Position numbers and translations under genes: made by a program | Sequence record: OZ035802.1 | Length of the DNA: 44,662 bases | Strand: one strand, 5' to 3' | Origin: Vectrevirus T145P2 | Notes under the pieces: generated by a model | Told to the model about the DNA's origin: nothing | The model's database searches: none | The model's input: only the letters and a program-made list of their open reading frames with translations | In this document: in pieces, positions 2,228 to 9,219 of the stretch | Numbering within the stretch: position 1 is the stretch's first letter | How the letters are laid out: each line of letters starts with the position of its first letter

Positions 2228-2250
2228 TTACTGGACACTATAGAAGGAAG
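2227..2250 (+). promoter_or_regulatory. SP6-like phage promoter
   Basis: ATTACTGGACACTATAGAAGGAAG immediately after terminase stop. Confidence 0.6.
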
Positions 2251-2383
2251 GCCCAGATAATAAGATAAATAATAGGTAATATATAGGTTAACCTAGGTTA
2301 TATAGGTATGCCTTAGTATGGGTGTACTCCTGTACACCCTATTCCTTACTTCCTTACTATATTTACATAATAGGAGAGAGACA

Positions 2384-2662
2384 ATGGCTAATGATTATAG
2401 TAGTCAACCATTAACAGGTAAGTCTAAGAGAAAGCAGGTACAACCTGTAAGTGAAGAACTAATGCTTCCGGTAATCCCAAAAGAGGAAGCTAGTAAGAAA
2501 AGCAATGTTGTTAATGATGCCACCAAATCAGGTAAACAGAAAGGGGCCATGGTGTGCCTTGAAGTGGACGGTGGTGTATTGAAGATTGCTATCGCGGTTG
2601 ATGGCAAAGAAGATTCAGAGTGGAAGTTAGTAACAGTGGAAACCCCTGTTACCCCAGTTTAA
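2384..2662 (+). CDS. hypothetical small protein, paralog A
   Basis: ATG after TAGGAGAGAG RBS; 92 aa; shares SGKQKGAMVxLE core and C-terminal VTP with the next ORF. Confidence 0.5.
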   Translation: MANDYSSQPLTGKSKRKQVQPVSEELMLPVIPKEEASKKSNVVNDATKSGKQKGAMVCLEVDGGVLKIAIAVDGKEDSEWKLVTVETPVTPV

Positions 2663-2679
2663 GAGAAGGAGGAGATTAC

Positions 2680-2967
2680 ATGGCTAAATATGGTGAAGGT
2701 TCTGTTACTGGTCAAGCTTTTCGAGTAAAAGCAGTACAAACTATTGCAACGGCAATTCCTATGCCTGTTGTTAAGGAAGCAGACCTTAAGAAGAAAGACC
2801 ACCCTATCAACATCAAACATTTATCAGGTAAACAGAAAGGTGCAATGGTTGCTCTTGAGAAAACTGACACAACCATGCATATTGCTGTTGCACGTGGCAG
2901 TGAACCAACAGACCCTTGGGATGTAACTGGTATGGAAATGGACGCTGTTACTCCAGCAGGGGATTAA
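2680..2967 (+). CDS. hypothetical small protein, paralog B
   Basis: ATG after AGAAGGAGGAG RBS; 95 aa; paralogous to 2384..2662. Confidence 0.5.
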   Translation: MAKYGEGSVTGQAFRVKAVQTIATAIPMPVVKEADLKKKDHPINIKHLSGKQKGAMVALEKTDTTMHIAVARGSEPTDPWDVTGMEMDAVTPAGD

Positions 2968-2969
2968 TA

Positions 2970-3314
2970 ATGCTTAACAAATACTTCAAGCGTAAAGAGT
3001 TCGCTTGCCGTTGTGGGTGCGGTACATCCACTGTTGATGCTGAATTACTGCAGGTAGTCACAGATGTGCGTGAGCACTTTGGTTCTCCTGTAGTTATCAC
3101 TTCGGGGCATCGCTGTGCTAAGCACAATGCTAATGTAGGAGGAGCTAAGAACTCCATGCATCTTACTGGTAAGGCTGCTGACATTAAAGTGTCTGGCATA
3201 TTGCCTTCTGAAGTGCATAAGTATCTTACTAGCAAATACCAAGGCAAGTATGGTATCGGTAAGTATAACTCCTTCACTCACATCGATGTACGGGATGGTT
3301 GTGCGCGATGGTAA
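2970..3314 (+). CDS. putative peptidoglycan hydrolase, peptidase M15-like (endolysin candidate)
   Basis: N-terminal KEFACRCGCG motif and SGHRCxxHN...HLxGxAAD...HID zinc-ligand pattern typical of the M15 (PF08291-like) family; ~114 aa; TAATAATG overlap with upstream gene. Confidence 0.6.
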   Translation: MLNKYFKRKEFACRCGCGTSTVDAELLQVVTDVREHFGSPVVITSGHRCAKHNANVGGAKNSMHLTGKAADIKVSGILPSEVHKYLTSKYQGKYGIGKYNSFTHIDVRDGCARW

Positions 3315-3888: not shown

Positions 3889-3913
3889 ATTTACTGGACA
3901 CTATAGAAGAGAT
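3889..3913 (+). promoter_or_regulatory. SP6-like phage promoter upstream of tailspike genes
   Basis: ATTTACTGGACACTATAGAAGAGAT. Confidence 0.6.
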
Positions 3914-3990
3914 AAGATAGTGCCGTTCTTTTGAGCGGCCTATTACTAGCCAATCTTCATAGGGAGGGTTGGGAAGTAATAGGAGGTCTA

Positions 3991-5430
3991 ATGGCTAAAA
4001 TTACCAAACCTGTCACAACTGGTATTATACATGAAGGTGGATTGCTGTCAGATTATCTAAAACAAGCATGGGATAACACCTTACACGCTGATAACTACTT
4101 TGTTAGTGTTAAAGATTTTGGTGCTAAGGGTGATGGCTCTGCCGATGATACTGCTGCATTCAAAGCTGCACTTGCTTCTGGTAAGAACGTGTATATCCCT
4201 GTAGGTATTTATATAATTAGTGAGACTTTGTATTTTAAGAATCAGGTTATAAAAGGTGGCGGCATAGCACCTGTCCCTAGTCTTGGTACAATCCTTGCAA
4301 TTTCACACAATGAGCCTGCATGGAAATATGATGAAAGCGCAGGTTACTCTATGGGTGGTTATTTAGGTGGGTTCTTCATAGATTATGGAGAGAACAAACC
4401 AGATAACTATGCAGGCAGAAAAGGCATAGATCTAGGTGATGACGACCAACAAGCATGGCCTTCTCAATTTATCATTGAGAACATCATTGTCCGTGGTGCA
4501 TACTTTGGTTTGCATGATGAAACAGGAGCATTCCAATACTCAATGCGCAATGTGGTTGCTATCAATTGCTGGGAGGGGTTCCGTAAGTTCACTGGAACTA
4601 CAGTCCTTATGGATACATGCTATGCGCTTAATTGCTATCAAGCATATAGACTGGCTAATGTTTATAATATGACAATGAATAACTGCGCCATGGATGGATG
4701 TAATGATATCCAAGGTTTACAGGCATTTGATATTACAAACTGCAAAGGTCTTGTGATAAATGGCATGTATAGTGAGAATTGTGAGATCCATCATAGCGGT
4801 AATGCTTCTATATTTATTCATGGAGATTCTACAGTAACAATCAACGGTTATGCCTTACACTCGCATAATGTCGTTGTTGATCCAGCATCTGGAAGTGAAG
4901 AAGCATACTTTCTTAGAGCGCACGACAGCTCTAGGGTCAATGTAGATGGAATCTTCTTCGGTGAGAACCTTAAATCTACTAGTATCTTCACCTACCCAAT
5001 TATGGCCTCTGGTGAGTCTAGAATTAAGCTAGGAACTACAGCACTTAAGGCATGGGTCGGTGCTAAGGGTGGTGCATCTATGGCTGCTGTTGGAGATAGT
5101 CTCATTGAATATGACAATACCGTATTTAACCCATCACTTACTGTAGGTTGGTGCAGTAATAATGGTGTTGTAGCTAAAGGGACACTAGTTGTAAACACAA
5201 CATTAGAACCTAATGCAGATTTAAATGCAGGAACTATACAATTAGTTGGTGACTATAAACCAAATAAAGGTGATGTTCTTACATATGGTTCTACTTTCGA
5301 TGTTCAATCATGTGCTATTATTCTGAAGCCACAAGGTGATAATAGTTGTAATGTTTACATTAAAAATCTAAGTGCAGGTAGTAGTGTTACACTTAACGGA
5401 ATATTGCACGTACAGGCAATTCGTAGGTAA
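3991..5430 (+). CDS. tailspike 1, right-handed beta-helix pectate-lyase-like depolymerase
   Basis: ATG after TAGGAGG; N-terminal VSVKDFGAKGDGSADDTAAFKAA motif typical of pectate-lyase-fold tailspikes; repetitive N/G/T-rich beta-helix composition. Confidence 0.7.
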   Translation: MAKITKPVTTGIIHEGGLLSDYLKQAWDNTLHADNYFVSVKDFGAKGDGSADDTAAFKAALASGKNVYIPVGIYIISETLYFKNQVIKGGGIAPVPSLGTILAISHNEPAWKYDESAGYSMGGYLGGFFIDYGENKPDNYAGRKGIDLGDDDQQAWPSQFIIENIIVRGAYFGLHDETGAFQYSMRNVVAINCWEGFRKFTGTTVLMDTCYALNCYQAYRLANVYNMTMNNCAMDGCNDIQGLQAFDITNCKGLVINGMYSENCEIHHSGNASIFIHGDSTVTINGYALHSHNVVVDPASGSEEAYFLRAHDSSRVNVDGIFFGENLKSTSIFTYPIMASGESRIKLGTTALKAWVGAKGGASMAAVGDSLIEYDNTVFNPSLTVGWCSNNGVVAKGTLVVNTTLEPNADLNAGTIQLVGDYKPNKGDVLTYGSTFDVQSCAIILKPQGDNSCNVYIKNLSAGSSVTLNGILHVQAIRR

Positions 5431-5514: not shown

Positions 5515-7950
5515 ATGATTCAAAGACTAGGTTCTTCATTAGTTAAATTCAAGAGTAAAATAGCAGGTGCAATCTGGCGTAACTTGGATGACAAGCTCAC
5601 CGAGGTTGTATCGCTTAAAGATTTTGGAGCCAAAGGTGATGGTAAGACAAACGACCAAGATGCAGTAAATGCAGCGATGGCTTCAGGTAAGAGAATTGAC
5701 GGTGCTGGTGCTACTTACAAAGTATCATCTTTACCTGATATGGAGCGATTCTATAACACCCGCTTCGTATGGGAACGTTTAGCAGGTCAACCTCTTTACT
5801 ATGTGAGTAAAGGTTTTATCAATGGTGAACTCTATAAAATCACGGATAACCCTTATTACAATGCTTGGCCTCAAGACAAAGCGTTTGTATATGAGAATGT
5901 GATATATGCACCCTACATGGGTAGCGACCGTCATGGCGTTAGTCGTCTGCATGTATCATGGGTTAAGTCTGGTGACGATGGTCAAACATGGTCTACTCCA
6001 GAGTGGCTAACTGATCTGCATCCAGATTACCCTACAGTGAACTATCATTGTATGAGTATGGGTGTATGTCGCAACCGTCTGTTTGCCATGATTGAAACAC
6101 GTACTTTAGCCAAGAACGCACTAACCAATTGTGCATTGTGGGATCGCCCTATGTCTCGTAGTCTGCATCTTACTGGTGGTATCACTAAGGCTGCAAATCA
6201 GAGATATGCAACAATCCATGTACCTGATCACGGACTATTCGTGGGCGATTTTGTTAACTTCTCTAATTCTGCGGTAACAGGTGTATCAGGTGATATGACT
6301 GTTGCAACGGTAATAGATAAGGACAACTTCACGGTTCTTACACCTAACCAGCAGACTTCAGATTTGAATAACGCTGGAAAGAGTTGGCACATGGGTACTT
6401 CTTTCCATAAGTCTCCATGGCGTAAGACAGATCTTGGTCTAATCCCTAGTGTCACAGAGGTGCATAGCTTTGCTACTATTGATAACAATGGCTTTGTTAT
6501 GGGCTATCATCAAGGTGATGTAGCTCCACGAGAAGTTGGTCTTTTCTACTTCCCTGATGCTTTCAATAGCCCATCTAATTATGTTCGTCGTCAGATACCA
6601 GCTGAGTATGAACCAGATGCGGCAGAGCCATGCATCAAGTACTATGACGGTGTATTATACCTTATCACTCGTGGTACTCGTGGCGACCGACTAGGAAGCT
6701 CTTTGCATCGTAGTAGAGATATAGGTCAGACTTGGGAGTCACTGAGATTTCCACATAATGTTCATCATACTACCTTACCTTTTGCTAAAGTAGGAGATGA
6801 CCTTATTATGTTTGGTTCAGAACGTGCAGAAAATGAATGGGAAGCAGGTGCACCAGATGATCGTTACAAGGCATCTTATCCTCGTACCTTCTATGCACGA
6901 TTGAATGTAAACAATTGGAATGCAGATGATATTGAATGGGTTAACATCACAGACCAAATCTATCAAGGTGACATTGTGAACTCTAGTGTAGGTGTAGGTT
7001 CTGTTGTAGTTAAAGACAGCTACATTTACTATATCTTTGGTGGTGAAAACCATTTCAACCCAATGACTTATGGTGACAACAAAGATAAAGACCCATTTAA
7101 AGGTCATGGACACCCTACTGATATATACTGCTATAAGATGCAGATTGCAAATGACAATCGTGTATCTCGTAAGTTTACATATGGTGCAACTCCTGGTCAG
7201 GCTATACCTACTTTCATGGGTACTGATGGAATACGAAATATCCCTGCACCTTTGTATTTCTCAGATAACATTGTTACAGAGGATACTAAAGTTGGACACT
7301 TAACACTTAAAGCAAGCACAAGTTCCAATATACGATCTGAAGTGCAGATGGAAGGTGAATATGGCTTTATTGGCAAGTCTGTTCCAAAGGACAACCCAAC
7401 TGGTCAACGTTTGATTATTTGTGGTGGAGAAGAGACTTCGTCATCTTCAGGTGCACAGATAACTTTGCACGGCTCTAATTCAAGTAATGCTAAGCGTATC
7501 ACTTATAACGGAAATGAGCACCTATTCCAAGGTGCACCAATCATGCCTGCTGTAGATAACCAGTTTGCTGCTGGTGGACCTAGTAACCGATTCACTACCA
7601 TCTACCTAGGTAGTGACCCTGTTACAACTTCAGATGCTGACCACAAGTACGGTATCTCTGGTATTAATACCAAGGTGTTAAAGGCTTGGAGCAGGGTTGG
7701 TTTTAAACAGTATGGTTTGAATAGTGAAGCAGAGAGGAATCTTGATAGCATACACTTCGGTGTCTTGGCTCAGGATATTGTAGCTGCTTTTGAAGCTGAA
7801 GGATTGGATGCCATTAAGTATGGAATTGTGTCCTTCGAAGAAGGTAGGTACGGTGTGAGATATAGTGAAGTTCTAATCCTAGAGGCTGCCTACACTCGCC
7901 ATCGTCTTGATAAATTAGAGGAGATGTATGCCGCTAATAAAATCAGTTAA
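5515..7950 (+). CDS. tailspike 2, endosialidase-like with C-terminal intramolecular chaperone domain
   Basis: 811 aa; two sialidase Asp-boxes (SGDDGQTW, SRDIGQTW); last ~105 aa resemble the autocleaving chaperone domain of endosialidases with SDADHK Ser-Lys motif; N-terminal SLKDFGAKGDG. Confidence 0.8.
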   Translation: MIQRLGSSLVKFKSKIAGAIWRNLDDKLTEVVSLKDFGAKGDGKTNDQDAVNAAMASGKRIDGAGATYKVSSLPDMERFYNTRFVWERLAGQPLYYVSKGFINGELYKITDNPYYNAWPQDKAFVYENVIYAPYMGSDRHGVSRLHVSWVKSGDDGQTWSTPEWLTDLHPDYPTVNYHCMSMGVCRNRLFAMIETRTLAKNALTNCALWDRPMSRSLHLTGGITKAANQRYATIHVPDHGLFVGDFVNFSNSAVTGVSGDMTVATVIDKDNFTVLTPNQQTSDLNNAGKSWHMGTSFHKSPWRKTDLGLIPSVTEVHSFATIDNNGFVMGYHQGDVAPREVGLFYFPDAFNSPSNYVRRQIPAEYEPDAAEPCIKYYDGVLYLITRGTRGDRLGSSLHRSRDIGQTWESLRFPHNVHHTTLPFAKVGDDLIMFGSERAENEWEAGAPDDRYKASYPRTFYARLNVNNWNADDIEWVNITDQIYQGDIVNSSVGVGSVVVKDSYIYYIFGGENHFNPMTYGDNKDKDPFKGHGHPTDIYCYKMQIANDNRVSRKFTYGATPGQAIPTFMGTDGIRNIPAPLYFSDNIVTEDTKVGHLTLKASTSSNIRSEVQMEGEYGFIGKSVPKDNPTGQRLIICGGEETSSSSGAQITLHGSNSSNAKRITYNGNEHLFQGAPIMPAVDNQFAAGGPSNRFTTIYLGSDPVTTSDADHKYGISGINTKVLKAWSRVGFKQYGLNSEAERNLDSIHFGVLAQDIVAAFEAEGLDAIKYGIVSFEEGRYGVRYSEVLILEAAYTRHRLDKLEEMYAANKIS

Positions 7951-8996: not shown

Positions 8997-9219
8997 AGCA
9001 ATCAGTCGGGAGCGACATTAAACACTCAGGGTGAATGATAGAGAGCGTCCTTAACTATCCGGCCTAGCTACTGAAGCCGTTAAACAATGTTAGATAGTGG
9101 AAGATGGCGCAAGCATAACCTACCACGATAAACCAAGGTTAGCGCAATGCTCTTTAACAATTTGCTTAGTGTAACCTGTGTATGCCGTGGTTAATTACTT
9201 ATTGAATGAGGAATTAACT

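Follow-up and report, generated by a model that had tools for sequence, protein, structure and literature searches.

Genes 41 and 42 of a K1-5-like Vectrevirus encode paralogous proteins built from a shared module that probably serves as a virion-surface anchor

The two small genes that separate the large terminase gene of this K1-5-like coliphage from its endolysin gene encode paralogous proteins, gp41 and gp42, which are quite likely to be virion components of some kind and which we take, with somewhat less assurance, to be probable accessory proteins of the virion surface, built from an anchor module. The window, that is, the whole stretch of 44,662 bases that was analysed, is a complete genome of the K1-5-like Vectrevirus group (Autographiviridae, Molineuxvirinae), and its record is permuted so that the first gene is that of the small terminase. 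Over 801 bases around genes 41 and 42 the window is 96.8% identical to LL11 and 94.8% identical to K1-5, and the window genes at 2384-2662 and 2680-2967 are K1-5 genes 41 and 42. The features of the region are as follows.

30-329: small terminase gene
326-2227: large terminase gene, with its stop codon at 2225-2227
2228-2249, plus strand: predicted SP6/K1-5-type phage RNA polymerase promoter, directly 3' of the large-terminase stop codon, with the core GACACTATAGAAG at 2234-2246
2320-2339, plus strand: GC-rich hairpin of 8 bp, GGGTGTAC-TCCT-GTACACCC, between the promoter and gene 41
2384-2662, plus strand: gene 41, ATG at 2384, 92 aa, 9.9 kDa; a type-1 copy of the module without an extra domain
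2680-2967, plus strand: gene 42, ATG at 2680, 95 aa, 10.1 kDa; a type-2 copy of the module without an extra domain
2970-3314, plus strand: endolysin gene, Peptidase_M15_3 (Pfam PF08291, E 6.7e-34)

In the window the endolysin gene is followed on its 3' side by the holin and spanin genes, and then by two tailspike genes. The first tailspike ORF (3931-5430) has 499 aa, or about 479 aa if translation begins at the likely ATG at 3991, and is unlike the K5 lyase of 632 aa that occupies the same place in K1-5. The second tailspike (5515-7950; 811 aa) agrees in length and position with the gp47 endosialidase of K1-5; the second host specificity of the window phage probably differs from that of K1-5.

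A preliminary description of this DNA, made from the sequence alone, had noticed two tandem ORFs of about 90 aa within 2384-2967, and had reported that their C-terminal halves align around a shared SGKQKGAMV core. The ORFs are where they were said to be, the SGKQKGAMV string is identical in the two proteins, and the pairwise alignment proposed there as a check gives a significant similarity by BLASTP (47.8 bits, E 9e-14, with 31 of 89 residues, or 35%, identical), so that gp41 and gp42 are tandem paralogues. Only the extent of the likeness has to be redrawn: the C-terminal halves do align, but since the BLASTP alignment covers residues 5-91 of gp41 and 4-92 of gp42, the similarity spans nearly the whole of both proteins, N-terminal arm included. 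Both proteins match phrog_2725 (E 8e-38 for gp41 and E 1e-43 for gp42), and when 73 homologues, of type 1 and type 2 together, are aligned, the invariant residues are T, G, P, S-G-K-Q, A, A and W. In a six-frame HMM scan of the window, the module is matched at these two places and nowhere else. The start codons are supported by Shine-Dalgarno sequences, AGGAG at 2372-2376 for gene 41 and the strong AAGGAGGAG at 2666-2674 for gene 42, which is among the strongest in the genome, and by the lengths of the homologues, 91-99 aa. Among orthologues dN/dS is 0.19-0.47 in six of eight comparisons; one of the remaining two gives 1.38, for a close pair with very few changes, and the other is saturated at synonymous sites. 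These values point to genuine protein-coding genes whose fairly rapid evolution is like that of surface proteins.

The ORF map, together with the Pfam and PHROG matches, bears out the earlier placement of the pair, after the large terminase and before the lysis genes. The proposal that a phage promoter serves the pair is supported: an exact match to the SP6-type core, at 2234-2246, precedes gene 41, and such cores occur 14 times in the window where 1.35 would be expected by chance. The predicted promoter is kept at the same position in K1-5, KAW1A4500 and SP6, and in variant form in Kp7. The hairpin is a terminator-like match, and is annotated as a 'putative terminator' in KAW1A4500, despite lying downstream of the promoter. 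Kp7 has a hairpin of another sequence at the same spot in its leader (GGGTACTCT...AGAGTACCC), and SP6 has a deletion there. The leader, 2250-2383, is kept across genera (at the equivalent place in L001, L002, which is KAW1A4500, L009 and L012, which is SP6) and holds repeated AGGT / CCTAGG motifs (ATAGGTTAACCTAGGTTATATAGGTATGCCTTAGT). The folding stability of the leader as a whole is not above that of shuffled sequence (z = -0.13), and an Rfam search of the region gave nothing credible. What might the hairpin do? Stabilisation of the mRNA and attenuation are both possibilities.

The evidence that proteins of this kind occur in virions comes from Klebsiella phage Kp7. [quoted passage not shown] In the GenBank record of Kp7 (ON148527), gp45 and gp46 are each named 'minor capsid protein' and gp47 is named 'minor capsid protein with Ig-domain', and the three genes sit between the large terminase and endolysin genes. 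The module HMM matches Kp7 gp45, gp46 and gp47 with E-values of 5e-22, 2e-20 and 2e-13, and the identity is 47% both between window gp41 and Kp7 gp45 and between window gp42 and Kp7 gp46. By homology over the whole module, and by position between large terminase and endolysin, gp41 and gp42 belong with the Kp7 proteins. Kp7 and the window phage also share the order of the genes and a leader with promoter and hairpin, whereas the third, Ig-bearing paralogue of Kp7, gp47, has no counterpart in the window. Virion association of the module family is thus supported, with one preprint, on Kp7 orthologues about 47% identical to the window proteins, as its experimental basis.

The deposited structures of Kp7 call for caution. 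The capsid entry, PDB 7Y3T, has a chain identical to Kp7 gp35, and the tail-complex entry, PDB 7Y22, matches Kp7 gp41 and gp36 at full length (adaptor and tubular protein A); a module chain is absent from both of these models. Our literature search found no paper on the Kp7 virion structure, and in a further preprint the companion entry 7XYC, for the Kp7 tail fibre gp52, is listed as unpublished; beyond the Kp7 preprint, the search found no virion proteomics or capsid cryo-EM for K1-5, K1E, SP6 or other Molineuxvirinae. We note that the major capsid protein of the window phage (32073-33281; 402 aa) is extended at its C-terminus by about 40 aa that are rich in Ala (...EGAAAAFSAAPAGIQAEDLVAAVRAVMANDIKPTAMKPTE), and that the 363-aa Kp7 major capsid protein in 7Y3T is without this stretch. 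The extension recalls that of T7 10B, but here it is in frame.

Neither gp41 nor gp42 has a match in Pfam or NCBIfam at E <= 1, or in PADLOC; a defence-related role was considered and rejected on the PADLOC result. Neither protein has a PDB sequence match at E <= 10, and neither profile nor sequence comparison matches the module to a PDB chain. In the AF2 model of gp42 (pLDDT 71) a disordered N-terminal arm precedes a small, beta-rich domain, and fold searches with this model returned nothing significant in the PDB and only members of the family in BFVD. Neither gp41 nor gp42 has an Ig domain, as a Hoc-like or T5 pb10-like protein would have, or a match to the phi29 head-fibre model PF11133.

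For relatives of the module, word-indexed searches gave about 100 clusters for each type, nearly all of them on contigs of about 44 kb, and an exhaustive HMMER search with a joint profile gave 228 representative proteins at E <= 1e-3. For a census of architectures, 149 retrieved representatives were re-scanned, namely 146 new proteins from the HMMER list and three triple-repeat proteins. About 90 of these 149 have a single module, and about 45, of 260-300 aa, have three modules arranged head to tail, one of the repeats being divergent in some of these proteins. Three proteins have three modules and a C-terminal domain, two have two modules, and in about 14 a single N-terminal module is followed by another domain; none of the 149 has more than three modules in one chain. 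The module, of about 85 aa, therefore occurs alone, in tandem genes, in three-fold fusions, and as an N-terminal anchor for virion-surface domains. The domains to which it is fused are an Ig-like domain (Pfam Ig_3/I-set; Hoc-like PHROGs, E 4e-23), the Sf6 tail-needle knob PF16532 (E 1.7e-30 and 5e-43), a C-terminal segment of the phi29 head fibre PF11133 (E 5e-6, above the curated cut-off), an SGNH esterase, recognised from a BFVD match, and the phrog_17779 domain, which is common to unrelated podoviruses.

The last of these partners has a distribution of its own. The phrog_17779 domain forms the C-terminal domain of family members of 236-238 aa. It is also found in T7-like Kayfunavirus, between the spanin and large-terminase genes, under the label 'putative protease' (CLB_P1 gp18.8, L010 2659-3450), and in N4-like Salmonella phages, beside a 'putative head protein' (FSL SP-076, L011 3971-4606). 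It seems to be a mobile display domain that is carried on different anchors.

What do the relatives say about the history of the gene pair? Wherever the context was read, module genes lie directly 3' of a T7-type large terminase gene, as in SP6 (gp42, gp43 and gp44) and in Kp7. The number of genes varies: vB_Kp_H01 has four paralogues after the large terminase and KAW1A4500 has three, KL01 and Tola each have one 'head fiber' version and one short version, and in metagenomic Autographiviridae a single triple-repeat gene replaces the array. A neighbour-joining tree puts window gp41, K1-5 gp41, SP6 gp42 and Kp7 gp45 in a type-1 clade, and window gp42, K1-5 gp42, SP6 gp43 and Kp7 gp46 in a type-2 clade; type 3 is a looser group of proteins that have an extension or have lost one, and it is missing from the window and from K1-5. 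Types 1 and 2 are separate clades across three genera with the order of the genes fixed, so that the duplication must predate the divergence of Vectrevirus, Zindervirus and Gansuvirus. Within Vectrevirus, window gp41 is 91% identical to K1-5 gp41, and window gp42 is 93% identical to K1-5 gp42. Both types have stayed adjacent to each other, in one order, and this implies roles that are not redundant, by way of either different binding sites or a hetero-oligomer.

Several local variants belong to the same history. The third paralogue of KAW1A4500, gene 51 (L002 2273-2950), encodes 225 aa, made up of a module and a domain of about 135 aa, and matches phrog_32357 (E 9e-118). Some Vectreviruses have this paralogue as an insertion of about 680 bp between gene 42 and the endolysin gene, which is present in at least three of the 30 closest genomes and absent from the window (2967-2970). 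In SP6, gp44 (81 aa) matches module positions 9-61 only and then ends, and is followed by gp45, an ORF of 55 aa; the two genes (L012 2735-3170) may derive from a type-3 paralogue that has been split or frameshifted or is decaying. In L005, a fragment that matches module positions 48-83 lies at 9007-9115, in frame upstream of a 113-aa gene that comes after a triple-repeat gene, and may be a remnant of a further copy of the module. A metagenomic protein of 95 aa, P0107, aligns with type 1 in its N-terminal half and with type 2 in its C-terminal half, which, on the alignment, suggests recombination between tandem paralogues. When repeats 1, 2 and 3 of the fused proteins were compared with paralogue types 1, 2 and 3 there was no clean mapping, repeat 2 leaning to type 2 and repeats 1 and 3 being ambiguous.

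How might gp41 and gp42 work? We propose that they are expressed late, and that each would be a bare copy of a beta-rich anchoring module of about 85 residues. To bind the assembled particle, most likely at the outer face of the T=7 capsid, the module would use its conserved N-terminal arm (TG..R.K) together with the SGKQKGAM/W core; for the site itself we lean, slightly, to the capsid lattice. The modules would act in threes. A unit of three is suggested because triple fusions are common and none is longer, and because two of the appended domains, the Sf6 needle knob and the phi29 fibre, are obligate homotrimers; we give a trimer an even chance. By Rosetta-stone logic, the two- and three-module fusions suggest that paralogues encoded by separate genes are in contact. 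Relatives have a display domain on this anchor, be it Ig, trimeric knob, head-fibre segment or esterase, and in the window phage, where both copies are anchor only, gp41 and gp42 would be plain decoration or cement subunits. In that role they might also stabilise the particle. A more ambitious version, which we put forward tentatively and hold to be less likely than not, is that the module is an undescribed capsid-binding fold that forms a three-part plug-in platform. In it, types 1-3, or three repeats, would make up a hetero- or pseudo-trimer, or each paralogue would take one class of T=7 quasi-equivalent site, with only one position bearing an exchangeable display domain. A symmetry mismatch, such as that of a trimer seated on the quasi-sixfold centre of a hexamer, would then explain how the Kp7 proteins can be present in the virion yet missing from the icosahedrally averaged model.

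The main rival places the anchor at the tail or neck rather than on the capsid lattice, as part of whisker-like or accessory fibres at the portal vertex, and gp41 and gp42 would then be tail accessory proteins of low copy number. Two of the extensions, the Sf6 needle knob and the SGNH esterase, are usually tail-borne and would suit a tail site just as well, and the Ig domain of Kp7 gp47 also matches solved chains named 'tail protein' and 'neck whiskers'. In some records the Ig version goes under 'tail protein' or 'major tail protein', and some family members are called 'tail fiber protein', but these names look like automated transfers from the Ig domain. The absence of gp45-gp47 from the Kp7 capsid model would fit a tail site as well, but the tail-complex model is likewise without them, and the group that holds the Kp7 maps chose the name minor capsid proteins. 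The nearest Ig relative to have been tested directly, T5 pb10, is a capsid decoration protein, and the phi29 head-fibre segment is an element of a capsid fibre. We therefore consider a tail or neck site unlikely.

A second alternative is that the proteins are non-structural late products, either helpers of assembly or packaging that act with terminase or host-directed factors, which merely co-purify with virions. The constant adjacency to the terminase genes would suit a packaging helper, and so would the gap in the deposited Kp7 models. One would not expect an intracellular helper to be fused to Ig, knob or head-fibre domains, however, and the Kp7 gel bands were identified from purified particles, so this reading strikes us as improbable.

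Much further down the scale is a role in lysis. The preliminary description had left two roles side by side, virion decoration and lysis regulation; the former is the one we favour, given the Kp7 orthologues in purified virions and the fusions to virion-surface domains. Antiholin-like or endolysin-modulating proteins would be at home in this transcription unit: the endolysin gene starts 2 nt past the gene 42 stop codon, no promoter or terminator match lies in the gap, the next phage promoter match downstream of the gene 41/42 promoter is at 3897, and genes 41 and 42 are thus transcribed with the endolysin, holin and spanin genes. Beyond this co-transcription, nothing supports the idea. Both proteins are hydrophilic (GRAVY -0.39 for gp41 and -0.31 for gp42), and hydropathy shows no credible membrane segment, whereas a holin, antiholin or spanin should have a transmembrane segment or a lipoprotein signal; the most hydrophobic 19-residue stretch holds charged residues, unlike that of the window's holin. 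The lysis PHROGs match the neighbours of genes 41 and 42 and not gp41 or gp42, and none of the recognised fusion partners in the family is related to lysis, all of them being virion-surface domains. The endolysin type, moreover, changes between genera (an M15 peptidase here, a transglycosylase in KL01 and Tola), but the module genes are retained. We regard a lysis role as very improbable.

The name 'acetyl-CoA acetyltransferase', which phrog_2725 and many RefSeq records have handed down, can be set aside, as thiolases are of about 390 aa and these proteins of 92-95 aa have no thiolase domain match in Pfam, NCBIfam or the PDB at the thresholds given above.

What does the reading of gp41 and gp42 as anchor modules of the virion surface contribute? 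K1-5 genes 41 and 42 were themselves already known, and the presence of the family in a virion has been reported once, for Kp7; because of that report the advance is an incremental one. New here are the explicit orthology with the Kp7 proteins, an ancient division into two or three types, a census in which architectures stop at three modules, the apparent graft of a pb10-type Ig domain, and the recognition that the database name is wrong. Genes of the 41/42 type are found in essentially every SP6/K1-5-type phage, many of them candidates for therapy, and are at present labelled 'hypothetical' or, wrongly, 'acetyl-CoA acetyltransferase', a propagated misannotation that the modular anchor would correct. 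A modular anchor would also explain why the number of genes between terminase and the lysis cassette varies from one to four, and it points to a natural and tolerant site for the display of foreign domains. As the family has neither a Pfam model nor a solved structure, solving the module in place on the virion would yield a new decoration or anchor fold, and the finding would gain in value should the module turn out to be a new capsid-binding fold whose paralogues are site-specific.

Among known decoration systems, the closest parallel is with T5 pb10, which has an N-terminal capsid-binding domain and a C-terminal Ig domain (PDB 5LXK is the Ig domain). Kp7 gp47, of type 3, has the same two-part layout, and its residues 93-177 are 44% identical to the pb10 Ig domain (E 6e-21), whereas the module and the N-terminal capsid-binding domain of pb10 have no detectable relation (hhalign A2, probability 0.03). 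The same display domain thus appears to have been grafted onto a different anchor, and the analogy suggests that the module plays the part of the pb10 capsid-binding domain. The phi29 head fibre, gp8.5 (PF11133), offers a second comparison. Its fibres are trimers that are seated on the capsid by an N-terminal base. The 'head fiber protein' of KL01 and Tola, and the protein P0335, match only positions 223-273 of the model, at its C-terminal end; the module does not match the phi29 base domain, and gp41 and gp42 are without the fibre segment. With lambda gpD, phage L Dec and T4 Hoc the likeness is one of function only, in that these too are small proteins on the outside of an HK97-fold capsid, and the three-module unit recalls the trimers of gpD and Dec.
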